Shown piece by piece: positions 13,725 through 64,000 of a DNA stretch of 64,000 nt. Location: the NCBI RefSeq assembly GCF_030013205.1, contig NZ_CP122648.1; one strand, given 5' to 3'. Each line of letters begins with the position of its first letter. Position 1 is the stretch's first letter. The stretch comes from Escherichia coli (GTDB taxonomy: Bacteria > Pseudomonadota > Gammaproteobacteria > Enterobacterales > Enterobacteriaceae). Under the pieces are notes generated by a model that did no database searches, was not told the DNA's origin, and was given only the letters and a program-made list of their open reading frames with translations. Made by a program: the position numbers and the translations under genes.

Positions 13725-15047
13725 TCAGAACAGCGTTAAACCAACGACGAAAATGACGCCGGAGAAGAGCAGGGCAGTGATGCAATAGCCCATGATGTCG
13801 CGGACACCGAGTCCGGCGATTGCCAGTGCTGGCAGCGCCCAGAATGGTTGTGCCATGTTCATCCATTGCTCGCCGTAGGCGATCGCCATTACCGATTTAC
13901 CGAGATCAGCGCCCAGCGCCTGGGCTGCGGGTATCACGAAAGGTCCCTGAATAACCCAGTGACCGCCGCCAGACGGAACGGCGAAGTTAATCAGTGCAGA
14001 ACTAAAAAAGGTCATTACCGGGAAGGTGTCTTTGTTCGCAACATTGATGAAGAATTCGGTAATGAGTCCGCCCAGACCGGAGTGCTCCATCATCAGTTGG
14101 ATCCCAGCGTAGAAGGGGAATTGCACCAGAATACCGGCAGTACTGCGTGCTGCCGCGCTGATAGCACGCATATAAGCCATTGGCGTTTTATGTAGCAGCA
14201 GACCCGCAATCATAAACATCAGGTTGACGGTATTGATGGTGATGTTGAAGCCATGTTCGCTGAAGTACATCGCAAGGTAAGCGATACCGAGTGCGCCGAT
14301 GATCAACGTCAGAATGCGGCTTTCTTCCAGTCGCTCGGATGGTGGGGCATCTTTCGGTAGCTGCTTTTGGAAATCAGCCTCTTCCATGAGTAGTTTCGGA
14401 TCGATACTCACCACGTCAGACGGTTTTGGCATCATCATGCGGGTGATAAATGGCATCACCACAATCAACGCCACAGTGATGAAAATGTTAAAACCACTGA
14501 ACAGAGTATCGCCCACCGGGATCAGCCCGGCGATATGCTCAACCGGGTTGCCCGGTGTTGCAGCCAACAGAGGCATTGAGCCAGAGAAACCGCCACCCCA
14601 GGTGAGAAAACCAATGTAGGCGCAGGCAATGAGCAACGGATAATCAGAACCGGGTACTCGGCGGGCGACTTCACGGGCAAACATTGCGCCGACAACCAAA
14701 CCAAATCCCCAGTTGATGACACAAGCGACTGAACCGAAGAAAGTAACCAGCATGACGCCCTGTACGGGCGTCTTTGCGGCGGAGGCGGCAGTACGCAGCA
14801 AACTTTTTACCGGAGCAGAGCTGGCAAGGGCATGACCGGTAACGATGATAAGCGCCATCTGCATACCAAACGCCAGCAAGTTCCAGAAACCGTCACCCCA
14901 CATTTTCACCATGCTGATCGGCGTTTGTGGTGTTAACCAAAGCGCGATCACGAAAGTTAGCAATGTCAGCAACATGGCAAAGATCAGTGGATCGGGAAGC
15001 CACCGGCTGACAAAACGCGTCATAAAACGCGATATGCGACCAATCAT
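13725..15047 (-). CDS. atoE: short-chain fatty acid transporter
   Basis: 440-aa highly hydrophobic multi-pass ORF between atoA and atoB; overlaps the atoA stop. Confidence 0.9.
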   Translation of the reverse strand: MIGRISRFMTRFVSRWLPDPLIFAMLLTLLTFVIALWLTPQTPISMVKMWGDGFWNLLAFGMQMALIIVTGHALASSAPVKSLLRTAASAAKTPVQGVMLVTFFGSVACVINWGFGLVVGAMFAREVARRVPGSDYPLLIACAYIGFLTWGGGFSGSMPLLAATPGNPVEHIAGLIPVGDTLFSGFNIFITVALIVVMPFITRMMMPKPSDVVSIDPKLLMEEADFQKQLPKDAPPSERLEESRILTLIIGALGIAYLAMYFSEHGFNITINTVNLMFMIAGLLLHKTPMAYMRAISAAARSTAGILVQFPFYAGIQLMMEHSGLGGLITEFFINVANKDTFPVMTFFSSALINFAVPSGGGHWVIQGPFVIPAAQALGADLGKSVMAIAYGEQWMNMAQPFWALPALAIAGLGVRDIMGYCITALLFSGVIFVVGLTLF

Positions 15048-15694
15048 AAATCACCCCGTTGCGTATTCAGATCGGCGGCAACTTCAAACCGAGCTTCTGT
15101 TTTGGCACACACGGTGGCTAAATCACACCCGTCGGCAATTTCGGTGAGCCACATTTTGCCGTCAATAAAACGAAAGACAGCCAGTTCAGTAACCAGCATA
15201 TGCACCGCATGTTGCGCAGTGAGTGGCATGGTGCAGCGGCGCAAAATTTTTGCTGAACCATCTTTGGCACAATGTTCCATGGCGATGATCACTTTGCGCG
15301 ACCCGGTCACCAGATCCATCGCGCCACCCATACCGGGCACCATTTTCCCAGGCACTACCCAGTTCGCGAGGTTTGCTTCTTCGTCTACTTGCAAACCGCC
15401 GAGCACGCAGGCATCAATATGACCGCCGCGGATTAGCGCAAATGACATGGCGCTATCAAACATGGCTGCACCGGGTAAAACACCGCACGGTTGTCCGCCA
15501 GCGTTCACCAGATCTGGATGCGCTGTCGTGACCGGGCCTAAACCGAGGAAGCCGTTTTCCGATTGCAGAGTGATATGAATACCCTCCGGTAAATAATTGG
15601 CGACCATTGTGGGTAAACCGATCCCTAAGTTAACGATGTCACCATCACGAAGCTCTTGCGCCACACGGCGCGCAATACGTTGTTTCGCATCCAT
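15044..15694 (-). CDS. atoA: acetate CoA-transferase subunit beta
   Basis: 216-aa [32 protein letters not shown], CoA-transferase family II signature; coupled to atoD. Confidence 0.92.
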   Translation of the reverse strand: MDAKQRIARRVAQELRDGDIVNLGIGLPTMVANYLPEGIHITLQSENGFLGLGPVTTAHPDLVNAGGQPCGVLPGAAMFDSAMSFALIRGGHIDACVLGGLQVDEEANLANWVVPGKMVPGMGGAMDLVTGSRKVIIAMEHCAKDGSAKILRRCTMPLTAQHAVHMLVTELAVFRFIDGKMWLTEIADGCDLATVCAKTEARFEVAADLNTQRGDL

Positions 15695-16356
15695 TATTTG
15701 CTCTCCTGTGAAACGATGATGTGGTCGATAACGGCACCAGGGGTGACAATATGGTCAGGTTGCAGCTCGCCGGTTTCGACCAGTTCATCTGGCTCTACCA
15801 GCGTGATATCAGCCGCAAGGGCTATCAGGGGGTTAAAGTTGCGGGCGCTAAGTTGATAGGTCAGGTTGCCAAGTGTGTCGCAACGATGAGCGCGAATTAG
15901 CGCCAGGTCGGCGCGCAGTGGGCGTTCGAGCAGCCAGGTTTTACCGTCGAGTGTCAGTGTCTGTTTGCCTTCCTCTACGACGGTGCCGACACCCGTTGGG
16001 GTGAGAAAACCACCAAGTCCAGCTCCGCCACAGCGAATTTGCTCGATTAGCGTACCTTGCGGCACCAGAACGACGTCCATCTCACCAGATATCATGCGCC
16101 GACCTGTTTCCGGGTTGGTGCCGATATGTGAAGCAATCACTTTGCGGACTCGACCATTGACGATGAGCGGACCGATGCCGGTATCAACAAACGCGGTATC
16201 ATTGGCTATCAATGTCAGGTCGCGAACACCTGATTCCAGTAATGCTTCAACCAGGCGGGATGGAGTGCCAATCCCCATAAATCCGCCCACCATGATGGTC
16301 ATGCCGTCACGAAAGAAGCCGGTGGCATCTTGTAATGTCATCAATTTTGTTTTCAT
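15694..16356 (-). CDS. atoD: acetate CoA-transferase subunit alpha
   Basis: 220-aa [35 protein letters not shown], CoA-transferase family I. Confidence 0.92.
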
Positions 16357-53361: not shown

Positions 53362-55401
53362 TCATCCCAGGAACCGTTGAGCACCAATTAGTTGCGCGAA
53401 GTAATCGGCACCAGCGTTCCGAACAATTTCCAACTTAACGTTCTGATCATTGTTTCCTGCTGCAGGGACAATCCCACGATTCATAGCCAGCGCCCGGATC
53501 ACATCTTCAACACTTACAGCTTTAGCGGCAGCACCATTTTCATGGTTAATAATGCCCTGAATTAGCTTTTTCATGACCTCAAAATTAGAACCATCGATTT
53601 TCTCCTTAACACCTAATCCGGTGTACTGAGAGAGATAGCTTTTATAGGACGATGTGTTATTTCCATCAGATGAAGGGGCATAAATATCAATAATCTGATC
53701 AATCGTATTTTTGCCGCGTTTCAGGTATAGCATTACCTGCCGATCTAAGGCGGCAATGCCTTCCAGCATCGTCGGGAAGCTGGCAAAACGGGCATTTGGC
53801 CCCGATTCCAGGGTAGCCCCTTTTTGTCCTGCGAAATTAAGATTTCCGGGATTGTTATTCCTGATCCCTCTGGATAAATATGCAGATCTGTTTACTTGAT
53901 TTGAAAATCCCTGCAATCCTCCAGGCCAGACCTTACCCGGATTGTTTTTTTGCCACTCCTGCACTTCGTTAAAATAATCAAAGTTGAAACGCCCCTCCAG
54001 CCCTTTCATTTCCTCACTGGTGGTAGGTGTGTCATTTGTAGGAATAGCCAATCCAGCTACTGTTCCGGCTGTAGCCCCAAGAAGACTTCCACCAACAACA
54101 CGGGCGGCAACTCCGGTCGTTGTGGCTGCCACAGCACCAACTCTCGATGGTCCAGCAAGTACTGCGGCCCCAAAAAGCCAGGGATGTTCAACCGCAAAAC
54201 CAACAAACCCGCTAAGTGCCTTAACAACCTTTGCAACGTTTTCGGCAAAATTGTTCAGGTCGTTATTAAAATCCGGGCCATTTACGTACTTACCAAGTTT
54301 ATCCAGCCCCGTTTCTACATCCGTCAGAATCCTTTTAAAGTTCTCACCATTCATGAAATTCAGGGCAGCATTCGTGGCACCATCAGACATTCTGATTAAA
54401 GCGTCTTCATTCCCCGCCATTGCTCCCTGAAATCCGCTGGTAAGCCGATCCCAGTTTTTTTCCAGGTTACTGGTAATATTCTGATATTTACTTGTATGTG
54501 CAGAGGTCAGTAACGAATCATTCTGCGCTGCACGTAACGAAAACTCTTTGTTGAGTTCAGGTATTTTGTCCTGATATTTGACTAACTGGTTAGTAAGACC
54601 AAAATTTACCCATCCAAGCCCCATTCCTCTGAAATTGCTCTGGGTAAGACCAGTTCCCTGATATTCCTTTGCCAGCGCTGCAACCTTTTTCAGGAATACA
54701 GGCAGGTTTTCAGTCGCGTTTTTATCAGGATTTAGCCCCAGATTAAGCAGGCCGACGCGGGCAGGATGCGATATATCATTTTGTGCTGCTGCCAGTGTAT
54801 TGAGCACATTGCCAACACCGGAAAAATAAGGCGAATAAGTGCTTTCTGCCGCCTTTAACTCTCCTGGCGTTGCCACCAGCTCATCTGCATTTTTCTGTTT
54901 CTCTACAACACTACGGGACATCATGCCAAAGCCAAACGGTCCGGCAACGCCCATAACCGAGAGTTTTGTTCCCCACGATACGGTTGTTTTAAACAGGTTG
55001 TTTAATCTTGAAGTGGTCGTCTGTAGTGTAGAATTGATCTGCTTGTAAGTTTTCAGCGTCTGTTGGGCATTTTTCCCCAGCCCGCTGAGATACTTATCAA
55101 ACATCGTTTCGCCGCGACCTTTATAGTTGCTTACGAACGAATCTGCTGTTTTTCCGCTGCCGACAAAGCGCCCTTTTTCGTCCCTCACTCTCCCGGATAC
55201 ATCCGGTCCTGTCCGACCAGATTTTGCCGCCACGGGTAAGCCTGCCCCCACGCTGCGCCCACTTTGCCCCGGTATTTTCATCGGCGTTCCGGCAGGGCCG
55301 ATCATCAGCCCGTTGCGATACTTTTCAAAAATTGCCTCAAGCCGTTTGAGGTGTTCTTCATTAACGTCCAGCGTCAGAACTGGCATCTGATTACCTGACA
55401 T
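53362..55401 (-). CDS. large Gly/Ala-rich protein, tape-measure-like (function uncertain)
   Basis: 679-aa ORF; hydrophobic Gly/Ala-rich segment (GFVGFAVEHPWLFGAAVLAGPSRVGAVAATTTGVAARVVGGSLLGATAGTVAGLAIP), helical N-terminal half, C-terminal NNNPGNLNF region; start codon overlaps the stop of the upstream frameshifted pair (TAATG). No NTPase motif found. Confidence 0.45.
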   Translation of the reverse strand: MSGNQMPVLTLDVNEEHLKRLEAIFEKYRNGLMIGPAGTPMKIPGQSGRSVGAGLPVAAKSGRTGPDVSGRVRDEKGRFVGSGKTADSFVSNYKGRGETMFDKYLSGLGKNAQQTLKTYKQINSTLQTTTSRLNNLFKTTVSWGTKLSVMGVAGPFGFGMMSRSVVEKQKNADELVATPGELKAAESTYSPYFSGVGNVLNTLAAAQNDISHPARVGLLNLGLNPDKNATENLPVFLKKVAALAKEYQGTGLTQSNFRGMGLGWVNFGLTNQLVKYQDKIPELNKEFSLRAAQNDSLLTSAHTSKYQNITSNLEKNWDRLTSGFQGAMAGNEDALIRMSDGATNAALNFMNGENFKRILTDVETGLDKLGKYVNGPDFNNDLNNFAENVAKVVKALSGFVGFAVEHPWLFGAAVLAGPSRVGAVAATTTGVAARVVGGSLLGATAGTVAGLAIPTNDTPTTSEEMKGLEGRFNFDYFNEVQEWQKNNPGKVWPGGLQGFSNQVNRSAYLSRGIRNNNPGNLNFAGQKGATLESGPNARFASFPTMLEGIAALDRQVMLYLKRGKNTIDQIIDIYAPSSDGNNTSSYKSYLSQYTGLGVKEKIDGSNFEVMKKLIQGIINHENGAAAKAVSVEDVIRALAMNRGIVPAAGNNDQNVKLEIVRNAGADYFAQLIGAQRFLG

Positions 55402-56083
55402 TACAATACTCCTGCGGGATTTTTGAATTTGAGCAGCTCACGAAACTGAGCTGCTGTTTTTACATTCAGACCGGAATCTGCACAGATGTCTCTGAATCCG
55501 GCTCCGGCTGAGTAGTCGAGGATGTCGCTGATGACGTGTTCGCCGTCGCGCCAGAACTGACGGCAGGCTTCAATGTCGGCAATGAATCGATCCATTCCGT
55601 AAGACTCAAGGACGAGCATTGAGTGCTCCATATTCCATTCACCGCATCCATAGTCCCCTTCGTCTGCTCCGGGGAATTTATCGACGAGACGCATGTAAAA
55701 AAAACAAGTTCACCCGCCACTTCGTCCAAATCAACGATTTCACGCTCCAGCGCCATATCGAGAGGGATTGTGTCGTAGCCTTTGCCCTCCACTGGATAAA
55801 CAAGGTTTGCCAGGCGAATAATTTCGTTTATGAGCGTATTACGTATGCCTTTCTCCCCATCCCATAAACCGGAGTCACGGGAGATTTTCTCCAGCATAAG
55901 GCAGGCAACGCGCGGACCCGCAACAACACCAAGACCTTCAGAAAAAATGGCAGAAAAGGTTTTACTCAGGATGAAGAAATGCTCTTTAAACACCTCTTTG
56001 CTGATCGGCGTGGCATGGAGCCAGCCATTACCCTTTTCAGTGCGCACAGGGATAATCAGATTTAAGTTTTTAGCAATTTTCAT
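55401..56083 (-). CDS. two overlapping same-strand ORFs joined by a probable programmed -1 frameshift (tail assembly chaperone G/GT-like)
   Basis: ORF A (56083 down to about 55466) reads ...DLDEVAGELVFF through a run of 8 T on the minus strand (8 A on plus at about 55696-55703); ORF B (about 55694..55401) is in the -1 frame and continues ...YMRLVDKFPGADEG. Upstream segment about 129 aa, downstream about 98 aa, directly 5' of the 679-aa gene. Confidence 0.4.
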
Positions 56084-56763
56084 GATTCACTCACTCTGTT
56101 TTTTTCCAGTTGATCCAGCCGCCCGGATATTTCTTCCAGTTTTTCCAGAGCTGGCTTGCAGGCCGCATCAATAACTTCACGGACCATTCCGGCGAGCTGT
56201 TCTTCTTCTGTCGGCGTTGTTACTTCCACACCTGATGGTTTCCCGCCCTTATCCCATACGCCCAACGGTACGAGCGCAACGTGATCGATAAGAAATGGCG
56301 TACCCTCAATGAAAAAATTGTCCTCGCCCATTACATCAGGAACTTCTGCCCCACCGGACGCACCACAAAACACAACCGACGGGCTGGTGGATACCTCCCC
56401 CCGTGCTTTCTGGATGTAATCGATGATTTCCTGCCCGTAAATCCGGCATACACCCCACACCTCGTCACCGCGAATATACGGCAACATGACGGTGCCAATA
56501 ATGCGCGACCGTTCGCCAACGTCTTCAATGGTTTTGCCTTCGGGATGGTCGATAATGACGGGTACTCCGGCGCAACGTTCCAGGAACTGCGGATTGAGAT
56601 AAGTTTGCGGTGAACGCCAGACAAATTCTTTTTCTTCGGCGCGGTAGGCCATGCCAGTCCCTGTAATACGCAGGTTAACCAGCCACATGTTGGAGAACTG
56701 ATAAGGCGACGGTAGCTGACCGTCCCGAATCTGCTTTGCCGCCTCAATTTCTGTTAAAAGCAT
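56080..56763 (-). CDS. phage-like hypothetical protein (227 aa)
   Basis: ORF MLLTEIEAAKQIRDGQLPSPYQFSNMWLVNLRITGTGMAYRAEEKEF; overlaps the start of the downstream gene by 4 nt (coupled operon). No family recognised with confidence; could be a tail-tube-type or protease-type protein. Confidence 0.5.
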   Translation of the reverse strand: MLLTEIEAAKQIRDGQLPSPYQFSNMWLVNLRITGTGMAYRAEEKEFVWRSPQTYLNPQFLERCAGVPVIIDHPEGKTIEDVGERSRIIGTVMLPYIRGDEVWGVCRIYGQEIIDYIQKARGEVSTSPSVVFCGASGGAEVPDVMGEDNFFIEGTPFLIDHVALVPLGVWDKGGKPSGVEVTTPTEEEQLAGMVREVIDAACKPALEKLEEISGRLDQLEKNRVSES

Positions 56764-56827
56764 AATGTCACCCGGTTATAATCAATAAGCCCCGCCAAAT
56801 CCGGCAGGGCTGAAATCAGCACGTTTT

Positions 56828-57415
56828 TCATGCCCCCGCGAGGCTTGCAACGTTAATTTTGACCAGGCGACGGGGAGGGATTTTGAAAGCACTAAGCCAG
56901 TTATTCGGATCCCCCTGATATTCAGTAATCCGGCGCCCGGCTTCATCCATCCTGACTTTTTTAGTCAAATAACCCGGCGTGTTTTCCACGGCCCACTGAG
57001 CACTTTCCTGAGCAGCCTTGTAAATCTGATCTTCCAGCACCGCCAGCGTTGCAGAATCTGAAACGGAACGAATATCCACATCACTGAATTTTTTAGCCAG
57101 CTTCTGTGCGCCAATTAATGCACGCTTGCGGTAATCCATCGACTTTTCACCAGCAAACGGGGCCGGAGCTCGACGGCCCATATTGCTGTATGCGGAATCC
57201 GCTTTGGCCTGGGCTTCTGCCAGTGAGGATTCATCTTCGACTGACGCGACGATGTTTTGATTAGCGTTATCCTCTTTTATGAAATCCTGTGCGGGGATCG
57301 CATTCAGAATTTCGATAATCTCCTGCGGAGTGCTGCCCTGCGACTCTGACAGAGCGTTAACCACCTCCATCAGTTTTAATCGCAAATCTTCTTTGCTTGC
57401 TGGCATTTTTACCAC
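56828..57415 (-). CDS. phage-like hypothetical protein (195 aa)
   Basis: ORF MVKMPASKEDLRLKLMEVVNALSESQGSTPQEIIEILNAIPAQDF; acidic/helical; first gene of the leftward operon after a promoter-like gap. Confidence 0.5.
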   Translation of the reverse strand: MVKMPASKEDLRLKLMEVVNALSESQGSTPQEIIEILNAIPAQDFIKEDNANQNIVASVEDESSLAEAQAKADSAYSNMGRRAPAPFAGEKSMDYRKRALIGAQKLAKKFSDVDIRSVSDSATLAVLEDQIYKAAQESAQWAVENTPGYLTKKVRMDEAGRRITEYQGDPNNWLSAFKIPPRRLVKINVASLAGA

Positions 57416-57445
57416 CTCTCTTTTTTCACCAAAAAATCACGACCA

Positions 57446-57643
57446 TCAGGCCGGACGTTCTACGGGATAAAGCGCCCGCTGCATTAAACGCCGGGCGACC
57501 TCATGAATGCTCGGAGCAATCCCCAGCGGAGAATTGCGGCGTTCCTCGTCCTGGATGCGCTGTAATGCTTCAATCTGATCACGAGCGAGTAAAACAGGTT
57601 TCACGCTGGCTTTTCTCATAGTCATATCTCCTGAACAAAACAA
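57446..57643 (-). CDS. small hypothetical protein (65 aa or shorter from an internal Met)
   Basis: ORF MFCSGDMTMRKASVKPVLLARDQIEALQRIQDEERRNSPLGIAPSIHEVARRLMQRALYPVERPA; possibly a small DNA-binding/antitoxin-like protein; no family recognised. Confidence 0.35.
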   Translation of the reverse strand: MFCSGDMTMRKASVKPVLLARDQIEALQRIQDEERRNSPLGIAPSIHEVARRLMQRALYPVERPA

Positions 57644-57749
57644 CGATTATGATTGCACAAACTGAAATGACGATCTACATCATTGCAATTTATGAAACAA
57701 TAACGCATGATGATCGCGTTCTTCCCATTGACTTCAATCACCTGAAAAA

Positions 57750-57785
57750 CAAAGCCCGCAACACTTCTGGCTGCGGGCTTTTTAC
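57750..57785 (-). terminator. intrinsic terminator downstream of the PerC-like gene
   Basis: Minus strand GCCCGCAGCCAGAAGTGTTGCGGGC hairpin followed by TTTGTTTTT. Confidence 0.5.
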
Positions 57786-57820
57786 TGGCACAAAAAAGCC
57801 GGGAAAAATCCCGGCCTCCG

Positions 57821-58108
57821 TCACTGACTGCAATTTTTCGATCCAGGGTATTTCCTGAATGCCTTACCATTGGGCTGATGTAATCCCATCCCGGCATGTG
57901 CCCGGCTGATGGTTTCGCGCATCTCCCCGAAATTATCCTGCCGTGCTGGTGGGCGTGCTGCCTTGCGGATACATTCCGCGCGACGTTTTGCCGCCTGTTC
58001 CCGTGCCTTGTCATCATTCGCCAGCATGATGACCTCAGCCCACCGCGCCGCCGCTCTCCGGTACAGACCACGCGCTTCCAGTGCTTCCGCTTTGCTGTCG
58101 TGAATCAT
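57821..58108 (-). CDS. PerC-family transcriptional activator-like protein
   Basis: 95-aa ORF MIHDSKAEALEARGLYRRAAARWAEVIMLANDDKAREQAAKRRAECIRKA; the KAExLExRGxYRRAAxRW pattern matches recalled PerC/Pch-type activators. Confidence 0.55.
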   Translation of the reverse strand: MIHDSKAEALEARGLYRRAAARWAEVIMLANDDKAREQAAKRRAECIRKAARPPARQDNFGEMRETISRAHAGMGLHQPNGKAFRKYPGSKNCSQ

Positions 58109-58647
58109 GCGCCTGTTTTCTCCTTTGCTACCCGGCGCTGACGTTTGCGCTTCTCATTCAGCGCCACCAGCCGCGTTTCTGCGTCCTGTTGTTCCTGTGG
58201 TGTCACCTCGCCGCACGGCTGGCCTTTCAGGTCGTAGCGTACCCCACCAGCCATTAAGGCGCGGTAATAGCGCGGACACTGTGCATAAGATGCCAGCGTC
58301 GCACGCAATGCCCCTGGACCGAATGCCAGCCCCCTGACGGCGAGATCCTGCATCAGGTCGTCGAATATCCCCACCTTAAGCGGCTTCGGTGCTTCCCGGC
58401 TGAATAATTCAGGCCACAACTCAGTGAGGCGGTTAATGCGCCTGCGGTTTTTGCGCTGGCGCTTGGTCATATGCCGCCACAGTGTCGCCCCTGTGGGCTT
58501 CTGCTGCGCTTTCTGGTTACCGGGCATCACTTTATGCGCCGATGTGGTTTTATCCTGCTCCTGCGCCGCCTGCGTCGTTTTCTGCGGCGTGCCGTAAATG
58601 CCTTTAGGTTTTCTGTTAATGGTCAGCTTAGTCATGCTTTGCCCCAT
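58105..58647 (-). CDS. ProQ/FinO-domain RNA-binding protein
   Basis: 180-aa ORF; basic N-terminus then LTELWPELFSREAPKPLKVGIFDDLMQDLA...GALRATLASYAQCPRYYRALMAGGVRYDLKGQPCGEVTPQEQQDAETRL, closely resembling the recalled ProQ N-terminal FinO domain. Confidence 0.7.
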   Translation of the reverse strand: MGQSMTKLTINRKPKGIYGTPQKTTQAAQEQDKTTSAHKVMPGNQKAQQKPTGATLWRHMTKRQRKNRRRINRLTELWPELFSREAPKPLKVGIFDDLMQDLAVRGLAFGPGALRATLASYAQCPRYYRALMAGGVRYDLKGQPCGEVTPQEQQDAETRLVALNEKRKRQRRVAKEKTGA

Positions 58648-58719
58648 CGTTTTTACTGATTGCTACGTTGCCCAACGGCACTGACACAACATTCTGTTTT
58701 CATTTTTAACATTCCTAAT

Positions 58720-59115
58720 TTTTTAATTCCTCACCTGCTGCACAGTGAAAATTTATGAAGTTAATAACAATATGATTTTAAATGTATTTTTAAGTACTCA
58801 CTTTTTAATCCTTATATATACGCAAAAGTGAGGTAAATAGTTAAGTTTTAGTTAATATCTTGCATGGTGTGTTTTTTAACCTACCTGTTATTTTTATTAC
58901 CTCATTTCTATTAACTCACCATTCCTCACTTTTGTTCCTCACTTTTTGTTATTCCCGTCCTGCTCCTCACCTGTTTTTCTTGTTGTTGTAATGTCTTGTT
59001 TTACAATATGTTTTTCATTCCTCACTTTTTGACCTATATACAGGTGAGAAAGTGAGGAGTGGCGTTGATTTTTTGTTAAATTACCCGCCATCCTCACTTT
59101 TGCTCCTCACTTTTT
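58720..59115. repeat. iteron array (TCCTCACTTTT and variants, direct and inverted), candidate replication origin
   Basis: At least 10 copies of CCTCAC(T/C)TTT: e.g. 58728, 58924, 58937, 58964, 59020, 59091, 59105 direct and 58826, 59044 inverted, within AT-rich DNA directly 3' of the helicase gene; the last copies overlap the helicase stop codon. Confidence 0.6.
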
Positions 59116-60529
59116 ACAGTGGGCGCACATAATCACCGTCAATAGCGATTACGCCGTCGCTTTCCAGCTTGTACAGCCAGCGCCGGAAGTTTTTCATTTC
59201 ATACCCCAGCTTTTTCATATCATCGCGGAGAAGGGCGATAGTGCACGCCTCCCCGTGTGCTGTTCGCGTTCTGATGCACTGCCATAGCGCAGCGTGATTT
59301 TCCGTCTTGTTCCCGGCCTCCTCGATGCGTTCCAGTTCAACAGGTGGGCGCGGCTTATCCACAACCACCAGCGACGTGATTAACTCCCCGTCAGTGTCGG
59401 TAAAAAGCTCCACCACGCGTAAATCATATGCAGCCTCTTTCAGTTCCTCCGCGTCCTTCATTTTGGTGCAGGAGATAACCAGGGCTTCACTGTCCGCACC
59501 TTCACGGCGAATACGGTATTCAGCGTCCAGAGATGCACGAAATGCACTGGAACCACGCGCCCCTTTTGTTTCATCCTTGCCGGAATGGTGAACCACCAGT
59601 ACCGTGGCCCCCGTGCGTCGTTTCAGTTCGTCACATCCACGGATAAACGCCCCCATATCCCGCGCGTCATTTTCATCATTACCGCCAAAGCAACGCGCCA
59701 GCGTATCCAGAATAATCATGCGTACCGGTTTACCCGTTTCCCGTTCAACCTGACGGGAAGCGATGACCATTTCATCAACATCAAGCGGGACCGCCGGAAA
59801 AATCGGGCGGTTTACCAGGTACAGATTTTTCACCCGTTCATCATTAACGATTTCCCATGCTTTGATACGACGAGGGACACCAATGCCACCTTCACCGACG
59901 ACATACATCACCGAACCATGCGCCACCCTGCGGCCTCCCCAGTGGCGACCCGTGGCAACATGACACGCCCAGGAACACGCGAGGAACGATTTATAGGAAC
60001 CGCTCGCGCCGTATGTGCTGCACAATGAATTAGCCGGAATCACGCCCTTAACGACATAATCAAGCTGTGTGTCGTACCCTGCAGATCCAATACTCATTGG
60101 TAGTGTGGTTTTTCGCTGGTCGTTTTTTTCTTCCTCTGGTATCTCTCCGGACAGTCTTTTCTGGCGCTCTCGTTCCAGATATTCGCGCCACTCCTCGCGT
60201 TTCTGGCTGTGCATTCCCTCGGGGTAATAATTCGCATCCCGTACACCTGCCGCCGCCAGCTTTTGCCCGATGGCGTTAATATTTGACGGCTTGATGTGGC
60301 CTGCCTTGTACAGCCGGACACAATAGCGACCATCGTCGATAATTTTCAGGTCTGCCAGTTCGTCAAGCTGGCTGTCTCCCAGCCATACAGGCGGCACGTT
60401 GTCGCCAGCAAGTCGCCCGTCCTGCTCCTGCCACTGTTTCGCGTGCGCCCAGGCATCACTACCCGCAAAAATAATGACTTCGGTCATTTTGTCGTGTGGC
60501 TGTTTTTTTAAGTTCGGTGCCAGTTTCAT
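59114..60529 (-). CDS. RepA/DnaB-like replicative helicase (RecA-fold ATPase)
   Basis: 471-aa ORF with P-loop GASGSYKS, Walker-B-like ILDTLARCFGG and LVVHHSGKDETKGARGSSAF, typical of phage/satellite helicase-type initiators; start overlaps the upstream gene stop. Confidence 0.75.
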   Translation of the reverse strand: MKLAPNLKKQPHDKMTEVIIFAGSDAWAHAKQWQEQDGRLAGDNVPPVWLGDSQLDELADLKIIDDGRYCVRLYKAGHIKPSNINAIGQKLAAAGVRDANYYPEGMHSQKREEWREYLERERQKRLSGEIPEEEKNDQRKTTLPMSIGSAGYDTQLDYVVKGVIPANSLCSTYGASGSYKSFLACSWACHVATGRHWGGRRVAHGSVMYVVGEGGIGVPRRIKAWEIVNDERVKNLYLVNRPIFPAVPLDVDEMVIASRQVERETGKPVRMIILDTLARCFGGNDENDARDMGAFIRGCDELKRRTGATVLVVHHSGKDETKGARGSSAFRASLDAEYRIRREGADSEALVISCTKMKDAEELKEAAYDLRVVELFTDTDGELITSLVVVDKPRPPVELERIEEAGNKTENHAALWQCIRTRTAHGEACTIALLRDDMKKLGYEMKNFRRWLYKLESDGVIAIDGDYVRPL

Positions 60530-60825
60530 TTTGTGCCCCTGAATGCGTTAATCATGTTTTTCATTTTCTGAATATTTGCCCGTGCCTTTGCGTTGCTGGT
60601 GGGCTGTTTGCATGGCGTGGCCTGTATCAGTGAAAAATCACGCCGGAACTGATAAACAGGCATCACGCAGTCATATTCGTACCCATCACGGCGGTAAGTA
60701 ACGCACCGTCCCGCCACGCTTTTAATCGTTACAGTGCCGCCGTATTTATCTTTGAAAATATCGCCGGGGCGGATTTCAGGCCGAGAGAGACCGCTGGCAG
60801 TAAAGCCAGAATTTTTCTTTTTCAT
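60526..60825 (-). CDS. hypothetical protein (99 aa)
   Basis: ORF MKKKNSGFTASGLSRPEIRPGDIFKDKYGGTVTIKSVAGRCVTYRRDGYEYDC; coupled (ATGA overlap) to the helicase gene. Confidence 0.5.
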   Translation of the reverse strand: MKKKNSGFTASGLSRPEIRPGDIFKDKYGGTVTIKSVAGRCVTYRRDGYEYDCVMPVYQFRRDFSLIQATPCKQPTSNAKARANIQKMKNMINAFRGTK

Positions 60826-60831
60826 GGTTTT

Positions 60832-61197
60832 TTACTCCTGCGTCTTGCTCTGAATTACCTGATAACCGCAATCGGTCAGCAATTCGATAAATTCCGGCAA
60901 TGTGCCGAAACAGCAATTATCACGCATACGTTCGCGGGATACCTCAACGCCGTTTTCGTAGTGACTCACCATGCGTCCGGTAAAATGCAGATCATCATCG
61001 TGATGGCACGTTGACGGCTTAATCAGTCGCGCACGTTCTGCCAGCTCCAGCAATGCTTCAACACTTCCGGCAATTGCACCATCCGGCAGGCGATAATTAC
61101 TTACCACGCGTCCATTCTCCACATTGACCAGTAGCTGCCCGGTAAATTTCTCATCAAACTGAATGCTGTTAAGGTCAGAAATTGACAGGTTATGCAT
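60832..61197 (-). CDS. hypothetical protein (121 aa)
   Basis: ORF MHNLSISDLNSIQFDEKFTGQLLVNVENGRVVSNYRLPDGAIAGSVEALLELAERA; same operon, overlaps the upstream gene by 8 nt. Confidence 0.5.
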   Translation of the reverse strand: MHNLSISDLNSIQFDEKFTGQLLVNVENGRVVSNYRLPDGAIAGSVEALLELAERARLIKPSTCHHDDDLHFTGRMVSHYENGVEVSRERMRDNCCFGTLPEFIELLTDCGYQVIQSKTQE

Positions 61198-61552
61198 GGT
61201 GCACCTCCTGGCGAATACGGGCGGCGAATACCATCACGCAGCCATCAGGAGATTGCTGGCGTGCTTCCTGTTCGCTGGTGGCCTCGATGTGAATCACGCG
61301 CGGTTGTGCCGTACTCAGGGCGATAAAACGCCAGATAAAATTGTTTTCGCATTTCTGAATAAACAGCGTGTTTTCTTCGCGCCCTTTCCATGTTGCCGAG
61401 ATATAGCCCATGCCATTGAGCATCTCGCAGGCATCAACCAGCGTATCAGCGGCTACGTGTACAGTGTTTTTACCGTCAGCTATGCAATCACGGTGCACCG
61501 CCAGGAAGGTGTATATAAATTTAGGGTGAGTTTGGGTATGCTGTGTTCCAGC
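61190..61552 (-). CDS. hypothetical protein (about 120 aa)
   Basis: Internal start of the long minus ORF: MAGTQHTQTHPKFIYTFLAVHRDCIADGKNTVHVAADTLVDACEMLNGMGY, preceded by GAGGT RBS; everything upstream in that frame looks like antisense junk. Confidence 0.45.
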   Translation of the reverse strand, partial: AGTQHTQTHPKFIYTFLAVHRDCIADGKNTVHVAADTLVDACEMLNGMGYISATWKGREENTLFIQKCENNFIWRFIALSTAQPRVIHIEATSEQEARQQSPDGCVMVFAARIRQEVHHA

Positions 61553-61754
61553 CATAATCGTTACCTCATTTAACGGTTTGGTTAGAAGCCCCGTTACTGC
61601 TCCAACAGTGCGGGGCTTCGTCGTTTCAATTGCTGAATTGCATGTATCAGCCCTTGTGGTATTCAGATTACATTTTGGTGAATACCATTTCAAGTCTTTT
61701 TTGGTATTCACTTTTGTATTACACTGCATCCCGTTATTAATCGGAGGTGCAAAC

Positions 61755-62060
61755 ATGTCCACGAGTTCTGTTAACAATAAGTCACAGCAACTGAATGCCA
61801 GATTTCCACATGAAGTAGTGAGTGGCATTGAGGCATCCCTACAGCCAGGGGAAACTAAAGCGAATTTTATAGTTACGGCTGTACGCGGTGAGATCGCCCG
61901 CCGCCAGGCAGAAGGAAGCGGAGAAAACCCCCTGGTTTCTTCGCTCGATGCGCTGGCGCAGGTGGAAAAAATCGGAGTCAAAGCTGCCGAGGAGATCGGG
62001 CAGCTCGTCACCGTCGCACGTGAAGAACTCCAGCGCCGCAAGGCCAAAGAATCAGAATAA
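61755..62060 (+). CDS. small DNA-binding-like protein (possible ribbon-helix-helix / YlcI-YnfO-like), the only convincing plus-strand gene in the element
   Basis: ATG 61755 preceded by GGAGG RBS; MSTSSVNNKSQQLNARFPHEVVSGIEASLQPGETKANFIVTAVRGEIARRQAEGSGENPL (101 aa); divergent from the flanking minus-strand genes. Confidence 0.5.
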   Translation: MSTSSVNNKSQQLNARFPHEVVSGIEASLQPGETKANFIVTAVRGEIARRQAEGSGENPLVSSLDALAQVEKIGVKAAEEIGQLVTVAREELQRRKAKESE

Positions 62061-62283
62061 TAACTATCATCGCCGTGGTGTGAGGAACTCCGGCGCATTG
62101 CTTTACAGGTACACAGAATGACCAACAAAGAATCAACCAAAACACCATCACCAACTCGTAAGAGACGACGCAAAAATATAGCGCATGAACATGAATCAGA
62201 AAGATTCGCACCTTGTTCGTTTGCTCTTGAGAAATTCCTTAAAGAGCACAGGAAAAAGCTCTCGTTGCAAACCTTGGAACGAA

Positions 62284-62692
62284 CCAAATCTGACTGATCA
62301 CATTGCCCACCAGCCGCAAATGTGGCATTGTTGGTGATGCGTTCAAGTATGTAGCTTTTCCACTGGCGGCTCTCTACGGTCGCCTTTGTTTTATCCAGAA
62401 CGAAATCAGACATCAGATTGATCAGCACCTGGCGACCTGACAAAATCGCATCAGTCGCGCCACCAGCAAAATTTTTTGCTTTCCGGACGGCGTGACCAAC
62501 GGCATTTTGCAGCAAAATATTCTGCATTTCTGGCGTGCTGTAGTAACGGTGATCAGCGCCTTCACTCTGTGCGACCACAACGCTATAATCTGCCTCGTAG
62601 ACAGTAAGCAATATGGCGCAGTAGGCTATTCGTTCACAAAGGCGCTCCGGCAACGGGGCGCTTTTTGTTATGTTCATCGCGTTACGCCTCAC
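62284..62692 (-). CDS. hypothetical protein; protein-like N-terminal about 135 codons of a 500-codon open frame (true 3' end unclear)
   Basis: MRRNAMNITKSAPLPERLCERIAYCAILLTVYEADYSVVVAQSEGADHRYYSTPEMQNILLQNAVGHAVRK is protein-like, but the frame has no stop until 61190 and runs antisense through the plus-strand gene with Ser/Cys-rich junk; possible lost stop, frameshift or sequencing error. Confidence 0.35.
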
Positions 62693-62696
62693 ACCA

Positions 62697-62903
62697 TTAC
62701 GCAGCCGTTCCGCGCGCTTCTTCCTCGCGTTCTTTCAGCCAGGCCAGCACCTCATCTTCATACCAGCCAACACGACGCAGACCGATTTTGAAGCCTTTCG
62801 GGAATTTTCCGGCGTTGATCATGTCCTGTAGCGAACTGTCTGCCTTGATGCGCAGAATATTTTTTACTTCCTGACGGGTAAGGATTTTTCTGATTGTTTC
62901 CAC
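62697..62903 (-). CDS. alpA: AlpA-family phage regulatory protein (excisionase-like HTH)
   Basis: 68-aa ORF METIRKILTRQEVKNILRIKADSSLQDMINAGKFPKGFKIGLRRVGWYEDEVLAWLKERE, the AlpA/Vis pattern. Confidence 0.8.
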   Translation of the reverse strand: METIRKILTRQEVKNILRIKADSSLQDMINAGKFPKGFKIGLRRVGWYEDEVLAWLKEREEEARGTAA

Positions 62904-62971
62904 TATGTTTTACCTCGTTAATCCGGCGTATTCCGGTGATAAATACGGTAAAACAGGGCAGGGCGGGAAAA

Positions 62972-63008
62972 ACAGTACCCACCGTTTTAAAACGGTACCC
63001 ACTGTTTT
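62972..63008. promoter_or_regulatory. candidate operator in the alpA upstream region
   Basis: ACAGTACCCACCGTTTTAAAACGGTACCCACTGTTTTTT: two direct GTACCCAC copies flanking the perfect palindrome CCGTTTTAAAACGG, about 70-100 bp upstream of the alpA start. Confidence 0.4.
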
Positions 63009-63039
63009 TTATCTCATTGATTACGCTTTTCTTTTTGCA

Positions 63040-63066
63040 AAAAAATAGCGACCGCAAAGGGCCGCT
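63040..63066 (-). terminator. intrinsic terminator after the 76-aa ORF
   Basis: Minus strand ATAGCGGCCCTTTGCGGTCGCTAT hairpin followed by TTTTTTT. Confidence 0.45.
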
Positions 63067-63073
63067 ATTGTGA

Positions 63074-63304
63074 TTACCGCTTCCACTTCTTAGGTCGTCC
63101 ACCGCATTTAAGGCTGGTGGGTCTCAGCACCTTGTCGATGCTTTCAGCCAGATTTTTCGATGCGCCACGCGAGCGCAAAAAACTGACTACCTCGTGTTTT
63201 GTGGGGGCTGTTGATTTGTCTTCCGGATCGTACGTTGACCAGAATTCACGATTTGCCATTAAGGCCAGTTGCAGGCCTTCGCCGTAGGCGGTGGTATTTT
63301 GCAT
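63074..63304 (-). CDS. hypothetical small protein (76 aa)
   Basis: ORF MQNTTAYGEGLQLALMANREFWSTYDPEDKSTAPTKHEVVSFLRSRGASKNL between int and alpA; no family recognised. Confidence 0.45.
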   Translation of the reverse strand: MQNTTAYGEGLQLALMANREFWSTYDPEDKSTAPTKHEVVSFLRSRGASKNLAESIDKVLRPTSLKCGGRPKKWKR

Positions 63305-63402
63305 AATAGAATTTTCATATACTCCGGCCTTGTCGTTAAATTTGTGGCAATTATACGATGGTTTGGCATGGTTTTCACTGGTTGCACTGGCTTTTTGTAC
63401 AG

Positions 63403-64000
63403 TTACACGGCACGGATACCCCTTTTACCACTGGCTATGGTCACTCCGGTAGCTGCGGCCTCTACAAATTCCCCCCACCAGCGCATAAGCACCACGCGCT
63501 TTTCCAGGTAGTTACTTCGGTTATATGCTCGCCTTACCTCGTTCGTGTCCACGTGTGCGAGTGCGGCCTCGATTACGTCCGGCTCGAATCCTTCCTCGTT
63601 CGCTGCTGTACTGAATATGGCGCGTAATCCGTGAGACACCAGCACACCAGCGTATCCCATCCGGCGCAATGCAGCGTTAGCGGTCTGGCTGCTCATTGGC
63701 AGCATTGGATTTTTAAGGCTGGGAAAAACATGTTCCCTGTGTGCGCTGATTGGCTTCATTGTTTCCAGTACAGCCATCGCCTGACCGCAAAGAGGGATCA
63801 CATGGTCACGGCGCATCTTCATGCGTCCGGCTGGAATCGTCCAGGTTTCGGCATCGAGATCTATTTCTTCCCAGCGTGCGGCGGCTGCTTCGGCTGGGCG
63901 TGCTACGGTCAGCAGTTGCCACTCAATCAGCAATCTGGTTTGCCGTTCTATGCTGGCGACCGATAAATCGTGCATTAGCTGCGGTAGCTGTTCCGGTCGG
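63403..64000 (-). CDS. int: tyrosine recombinase / P4-type integrase, C-terminal catalytic part (gene starts beyond right edge)
   Basis: Frame is open to the window edge; C-terminal sequence ...HDLSVASIERQTRLLIEWQLLTVARPAEAAAARWEEIDL...HVIPL...LVSHGLRAIFSTAANEEGF...RRAYNRSNYLEKR shows the R...HxxR...Y catalytic residues of tyrosine integrases. Confidence 0.85.
   Translation of the reverse strand, partial: RPEQLPQLMHDLSVASIERQTRLLIEWQLLTVARPAEAAAARWEEIDLDAETWTIPAGRMKMRRDHVIPLCGQAMAVLETMKPISAHREHVFPSLKNPMLPMSSQTANAALRRMGYAGVLVSHGLRAIFSTAANEEGFEPDVIEAALAHVDTNEVRRAYNRSNYLEKRVVLMRWWGEFVEAAATGVTIASGKRGIRAV

Follow-up and report, generated by a model that had tools for sequence, protein, structure and literature searches.

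What do a FinO/ProQ-domain protein and a PerC-family protein, encoded by two overlapping genes on a mobile element of Escherichia coli, do for that element or for its host? Plasmid-borne FinO-domain proteins control copy number as well as conjugation, and ProQ binds RNAs on a global scale. In the 64,000-nucleotide stretch of DNA analysed here (called the window), the two open reading frames described in an earlier note were recovered on the minus strand at 58105..58647 (180 aa) and 57821..58108 (95 aa) with an ATGA overlap, and the peptides quoted there as signs of a FinO-like domain (LTELWPELFS, KVGIFDDLMQDLA and RYDLKGQPCGEVT) are all present in the translation of 58105..58647. The note had proposed that the pair may reprogram the host or serve the element's own antisense control, and both proposals are plausible. 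The reading that we favour, with a probability of about 60%, is that the replication operon of a PICI-type phage satellite ends in an optional regulatory pair, FinO-perC, which encodes a FinO-domain RNA binder and a PerC regulator.

The window belongs to E. coli ETEC4079, a pig isolate (NZ_CP122643), in which its sequence is identical. The pair lies in an island of about 13.2 kb with yejO on one side and tRNA-Pro/yejM on the other, flanked by 26-nt direct repeats, CGTATAGCT(T/A)AACGTGTAGCTAAAAA, at a spacing of 13,158 bp. The left repeat is located at 51552-51577 and the second copy (L001 27311-27336) lies past the window end, as does the tRNA-Pro; the two copies are the probable ends of the island. 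Having an integrase gene at one end, an AlpA gene, a rep gene followed by an iteron origin, a single gene orientation, a size in the range of ~10-15 kb with flanking repeats, and lacking a complete complement of phage structural and lysis genes, the island is a PICI-type phage satellite integrated at tRNA-Pro. The earlier claim that the pair is carried by a mobile element is thus borne out by the RefSeq neighbourhood, and also by the related loci described below. The gene order matches the published layout of Gram-negative PICIs (PMC6092414). With EcCICFT073 and EcCIEDL933 the ETEC4079 island shares the integrase, alpA, an RgdR-like DUF4222 gene, rep followed by an iteron origin, a length of ~13 kb and a tRNA site, but its packaging module consists of DUF2213, lytic-transglycosylase and small-terminase-like N-terminus components, whereas that of the two published islands contains capsid, portal and terminase genes.

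In minus-strand order, the island contains first the integrase (63403..64000, cut at the window end; the gene ends at window-equivalent position 64644 with tRNA-Pro just past it), a small hypothetical gene, the AlpA-family regulator (62697..62903; Pfam Phage_AlpA, E 5.5e-8), ~640 nt without annotation, an Icd-like remnant and a 121-aa gene. Next come the DUF4222 gene (60526..60825), the RepA-family helicase that is the island replication protein (59114..60529), the iterons, the FinO-domain gene, perC, two terminators and a phage-derived module (52783..57619), with the genes all on the minus strand. The DUF4222 protein shares 65% identity with RgdR (ECs1581) of O157 Sakai Sp7/OI-51, a regulator of type III secretion in which the substitution R20C in the RGD motif abolishes activation (PMC3378721); at the position of this motif the island protein has PGD. 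The stretch without RefSeq annotation (62060-62697) displays mosaic conservation across many islands, and a 59-aa plus-strand ORF within it (62119-62298) matches phrog_21027 and is followed by a terminator at 62365-62384. The minus-strand open frame 61190-62692 was considered as a further gene; the part upstream of the Icd-like end is probably none and gave no PHROG or NCBIfam match.

The downstream module encodes 57-aa, 195-aa, DUF2213, 205-aa, 679-aa lytic-transglycosylase and 175-aa proteins, the last of which closes the module and has a small-terminase-like N-terminus. The 57-aa, 195-aa and DUF2213 proteins jointly match one 545-aa phage family. Within 56080-57415, the protein called 'NUDIX hydrolase' in RefSeq (56828-57406) and the DUF2213 protein correspond to the C- and N-terminal parts, respectively, of the 545-aa phrog_6216, and the DUF2213 part of this pair is also similar to head maturation proteases; judged from these alignments, the name 'NUDIX hydrolase' appears doubtful. 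Directly downstream of the gene for the 175-aa protein, several copies of TTGACACTTTTT(CGCG) are found at 52549-52782, which may represent a packaging or regulatory site.

The domain searches that the earlier note had proposed as a check support both of its assignments at the profile level, and searches of structures and folds support that of FinO. The product of the upstream gene matches Pfam ProQ (PF04352) with an E-value of 1.2e-23 over model positions 4-108 of 109. Its length of 180 aa holds for the open reading frame counted from the upstream ATG (58105..58647), but the true start is probably the ATG at 58635, which yields a protein of 176 aa beginning MTKLTINRKPKGIYG (58105..58635, minus strand). 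The start at 58635 is preferred because it is the RefSeq choice, because 22 of 23 aligned homologues begin there, with N-termini of the form MT(K/T)LTINRKPKGIYG, and because it has the better ribosome-binding site (GGGG). Residues 1-51 are disordered and basic and contain the conserved motif MTKLTINRKPKGIYG and an RQRKNRRR cluster; the FinO domain spans approximately residues 58-145, and a basic helix is found at the C-terminus. The best NCBIfam match, FinO (NF010317), scored 64.6 bits against a cut-off of 136 and the ProQ equivalog (NF003434) 58.1 bits against a cut-off of 127, so that neither cut-off was passed, and the protein belongs to a separate clade which is neither FinO proper nor ProQ proper. 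A search of phage genomes returned seven weak matches with at most 39% identity. Plasmid matches likewise reached at most ~39%, except for two records with identities in the range of 60-80%; of these, the listed one (78%) was discarded as a close plasmid relative, being a 4.8-Mb sequence and evidently a chromosome filed as a plasmid.

A sequence search against solved structures matched ProQ (5nb9, E 9e-12), FinO (1dvo), NMB1681 and RocC. The AlphaFold2 model, computed from 24 clade members, shows disorder up to residue 51 and is confident from residue 61 to residue 170 (pLDDT ~86-96). Foldseek returned 26 matches at E <= 0.001, every one of them to a FinO-domain structure, and their target-normalised TM-scores range from 0.60 to 0.84. 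In the RocC-RocR structure, the residues G52, Y87 and R97 of RocC form the pocket for the 3'-nucleotide and are equivalent to G37, Y70 and R80 of ProQ, while S70, K71 and R75 constitute a helical N-cap motif reading the phosphates of the hairpin (PMC9674577). The pocket residues have their counterparts in G89, Y123 and R133 of the island protein, and K87, G89, R111, Y123 and R133 correspond to K35, G37, R58, Y70 and R80 of ProQ. All 24 clade members have K87, Y123 and R133, and nearly all have G89 and R111. In the N-cap, structure-chain alignments indicate that the arginine is kept (R111) and that Ser-Lys is replaced by Gly-Pro (G106-P107). Since this Ser-Lys is present in RocC, ProQ and FinO, the hairpin contacts of the island protein may differ.

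The protein was compared with two groups of characterized relatives. FinO of F-like plasmids and FopA of the IncI plasmid pCol1B9 are, like the island protein, borne by mobile elements, have a basic N-terminal extension ahead of the FinO domain, do without the Tudor-like C-terminal domain of ProQ and conserve the pocket Tyr and Arg; the identity amounts to ~30% with FinO and to 35% over 83 residues with FopA. The N-terminal region of the island protein is however unrelated to those of FinO and FopA, and its carrier is a phage satellite rather than a conjugative plasmid. The N-terminal domain of ProQ (E. coli, Salmonella), RocC (Legionella) and NMB1681 (Neisseria) have the same fold (target-normalised TM-score up to 0.84), and towards residues 1-126 of ProQ the island protein has 34% identity and the same 3'-nucleotide pocket. 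It lacks the linker and Tudor-like C-terminal domain of ProQ, reads G-P-G-A-L-R in the N-cap where the ProQ/RocC/NMB1681 group has S-K-(T/S)-x-L-R and, unlike in that group, is encoded by an accessory, strain-variable gene.

The downstream gene, perC (57821..58108, minus strand, 95 aa), matches Pfam PerC (PF06069) over essentially its full length (E 2.4e-32, model positions 1-89 of 90) and phrog_994 with E 8e-36. The match to the ANR family (NF033650; 14.4 bits against a cut-off of 32, E 0.024) is a resemblance only, and a weak ANR-family resemblance of PICI PerC proteins has also been remarked in PMC11773190. The phage-genome search with this protein returned two weak matches. In its structural model the N-terminal half forms a generic TPR-like helical bundle, and no DNA-binding fold was recognised in the model by the fold search. 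Gram-negative PICIs are known to carry PerC homologues as accessory genes (PMC6092414). The island protein has 51% identity to PchE of O157 Sakai Sp7/OI-51, for which the location in OI-51 has been described (PMC3378721), and 46% to EcCIMP1_025 from the E. coli MP1 PICI. PchE (Sp7/OI-51, EcCIEDL933) and EcCIMP1_025 are likewise PerC-family proteins of ~90-95 aa encoded after the replication genes of a PICI or cf-PICI, but their islands have no FinO-domain gene, in contrast to the ETEC4079 island. The earlier wording 'PerC-like activator' is correct as to the family, but 'activator' names the family and not an activity: EcCIMP1_025 silences LEE1 (PMC11773190), whereas LEE1 is, according to work cited in PMC11773190, unaffected by the PchE-type PerC homologues of EcCIEDL933 and EcCICFT073. 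What has been published on PICI PerC homologues and LEE thus gives no consistent effect.

At the junction between the two genes (gcATGAtt), the ATG of perC (58108-58106) shares bases with both the final sense codon and the TGA stop (58107-58105) of the FinO-domain gene, which gives an overlap of 4 nt (ATGA, 58105-58108). An AAGGAG Shine-Dalgarno sequence is located at 58125-58120, 11 nt upstream of the perC ATG, and from this arrangement perC is probably translationally coupled to the FinO-domain gene. Directly 3' of perC, two tandem intrinsic-terminator hairpins with U tracts (57741..57818, minus strand; -39.6 kcal/mol, z -4.7) mark the end of the rep-proQ-perC transcription unit. Because the terminators predicted in the window include none between repA and the FinO-perC pair, the pair appears to close the replication operon; no sigma-70-like promoter was found directly ahead of the pair either. 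Between repA and the FinO-domain gene lies an AT-rich iteron region (58728..59112) containing, on both strands, ten copies of AAGTGAGGA with at most one mismatch. All six exact matches of the 64-kb window fall within this region, which is therefore the probable replication origin of the island, and the 50-aa 'hypothetical protein' annotated inside it by RefSeq (58939-59091) is probably no real gene.

A pattern search of IMG/VR yielded 80 loci encoding a relative of the FinO-domain protein, many of them on contigs of 10-17 kb. Marker mapping in these loci revealed a modular backbone of int, alpA, DUF4222, rep, an optional SSB gene and the FinO gene, in which the rep slot is filled interchangeably by a RepA helicase, a DUF927 primase or a D5_N primase and the FinO gene is placed after rep or SSB in the loci that are not cut at the contig end. 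PerC comes after the FinO gene in 51 of the 80 loci, in 48 of them with the same overlapping junction; in 17 loci a capsid gene directly takes this place (capsid-forming PICIs), in four an unrelated 138-aa gene, and another four have the order SSB-PerC-FinO. The arrangement rep-FinO-PerC without SSB was found in 35 of the 80 loci, and SSB and FinO genes occur together in 29. Sakai Sp7 carries SSB-PchE without a FinO gene, EcCIMP1 has PerC and no FinO gene, and in a second, independent sample collected with a backbone DNA motif the FinO gene was present in 41 non-duplicate loci and missing from another 32. Islands of otherwise similar make-up can lack the FinO gene or PerC, so that the satellite life cycle requires neither of them. 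Both genes are under purifying selection (median dN/dS 0.24 and 0.29 for the FinO gene and perC, respectively), and on these values the possibility of decaying cargo was rejected. In a blastn census the clade was detected in 1174 of 5426 complete E. coli genomes (22%), always on the chromosome and with up to nine copies per genome, and every row among the census matches listed bears the annotation 'ProQ/FINO family protein'.

Two observations on the related loci concern other genes. The first ~30 residues are near-identical (MKxAPNxKxxP...TEVIIFAGSDAWAHA) in four different replication proteins, namely the RepA helicase at 59114-60529, two DUF927-type primases and a D5_N primase (L002 7202-9328, L007 2839-4587 and L008 4601-6733), which suggests a common N-terminal module that may be swapped among different replication enzymes. 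A Citrobacter island with the FinO-PerC pair (L007) also carries, in its cargo region at 14758-15822, a gene with a PDDEXK_GAPS4 domain, which is a candidate anti-phage defence gene.

Mobile-element FinO proteins are known to work with dedicated antisense RNAs, FinO with FinP and FopA with Inc (PMC9977716, PMC7491321), and the island was searched for such a partner. An Rfam scan of 50000-64000 (E <= 1) returned sub-threshold chance matches only, among them an 'ncr1175' match that coincides with the tandem terminators after perC, and contained no C4-, CI- or IsrK-type RNA despite the presence of the Icd-like gene. The terminator following the pair, another possible ligand, is present in many lineages, not in all, and was set aside because GC-rich hairpins of this kind are too ordinary in form to be evidence for a specific ligand. 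The best candidate is a predicted 77-nt RNA on the plus strand (62596..62672), which would be antisense to the leader that lies downstream of alpA. Its promoter-like site (TTCACT-17-TATAAT, 62561-62589) is found immediately downstream of alpA on the opposite strand, about 75 nt from a strong terminator, a 12-bp hairpin with a U5 tail at 62638-62672. Three features suggest that the element is real: pairing in the hairpin is perfect for the plus strand alone, the U tract persists although four different sequences flank it, and a diverged relative retains the promoter hexamers at the same 17-nt distance. The predicted fold of the RNA has a z of -2.6, and Rfam has no match for the element (62561-62672). 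Hairpin and U tract recur in at least 73 non-duplicate PICI-like loci.

Whether the FinO-domain protein is the dedicated partner of this antisense RNA, tuning satellite induction or replication, is another matter. The behaviour of the plasmid proteins and the conserved promoter and terminator speak for this possibility, but the element occurs in 32 non-duplicate PICI-like loci that have no FinO gene as well as in 41 that have one, and it is missing from some loci with the gene, e.g. L002 and L073. It is thus a backbone feature and not a dedicated partner, and the comparisons of island sequences and loci disclosed no RNA partner specific to the FinO-domain gene. The hairpin exhibits almost no covariation and could just stop plus-strand read-through into alpA, and we regard a one-to-one partnership as quite unlikely. 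Somewhat less unlikely, although still improbable, is that the pair mainly reprograms the host, with the FinO-domain protein as a second ProQ-like global binder and PerC acting on virulence or metabolic promoters. The wide distribution of the clade with its multiple copies per genome, the ability of minimal FinO-domain proteins to bind RNA globally (PMC7272453) and the changes in LEE expression caused by PICI PerC and RgdR homologues in some strains (PMC3378721, PMC11773190) are in line with such a role. The position of both genes at the end of an apparently induction-dependent replication operon with no sigma-70-like promoter of their own detected ahead of them, and the PchE-type homologues described as having no effect on LEE1, argue against it.

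The FinO-domain protein might also be a nucleic-acid-binding accessory in replication or packaging that partly replaces SSB, or it might act on helper-phage RNAs against the helper. The gene occupies the origin-side slot in which other islands have SSB, the rep-FinO-PerC loci without SSB are numerous, and many islands without the FinO gene have rep-SSB; however, 29 loci contain both genes, and binding of single-stranded DNA by FinO domains finds no support in the present analyses or in the literature found, which makes this the case only with very small probability.

We therefore return to the optional regulatory pair at the end of the satellite replication operon. By analogy with other FinO domains, the FinO-domain protein would most likely grip an intrinsic-terminator-type hairpin together with its 3' tail, and this grip would protect the bound RNA or aid its pairing with a partner; the island's own RNAs, those of the helper phage and those of the host are candidate targets. 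The PerC-like protein would probably be translated in step with it and, judging from its model, would most likely alter transcription through protein contacts and not through a classical DNA-binding domain. We infer RNA binding by the FinO-domain protein and expression of the pair upon island induction. A more specific version, which we put forward tentatively and consider rather doubtful, is that the island proteins form a satellite-specialised clade of RNA chaperones and that together with a small terminator-bearing RNA they time induction or replication or blunt the helper phage; the transcript antisense to the alpA-adjacent leader or a helper-phage RNA would be candidates for this RNA.

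Both gene labels were already known from RefSeq ('ProQ/FinO family protein' and 'PerC family transcriptional regulator'), and PerC in PICIs has been published. Reviews give FinO-domain proteins of phages and plasmids a general mention (PMC9977716, PMC7491321), and our literature searches found no paper that connects the FinO domain with PICIs or with satellites of other kinds. What is new, to a modest degree, is that the enterobacterial PICI/cf-PICI backbone regularly, though not always, includes a FinO-domain clade that is distinct, conserved and widespread, often in or beside the SSB slot and often coupled to PerC. The PerC half matters less, because PerC genes in PICIs have already been described and their effects on virulence promoters vary. 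A third FinO group that is satellite-borne and common in E. coli would extend RNA-chaperone biology to the conflicts between satellites and their helpers, and the clade is predicted to add an accessory RNA-binding protein to many pathogenic strains. If the clade is indeed a satellite-specialised chaperone, no earlier case of RNA control assisted by a protein would be on record for PICI-type satellites, and PerC would be its co-translated transcriptional arm.
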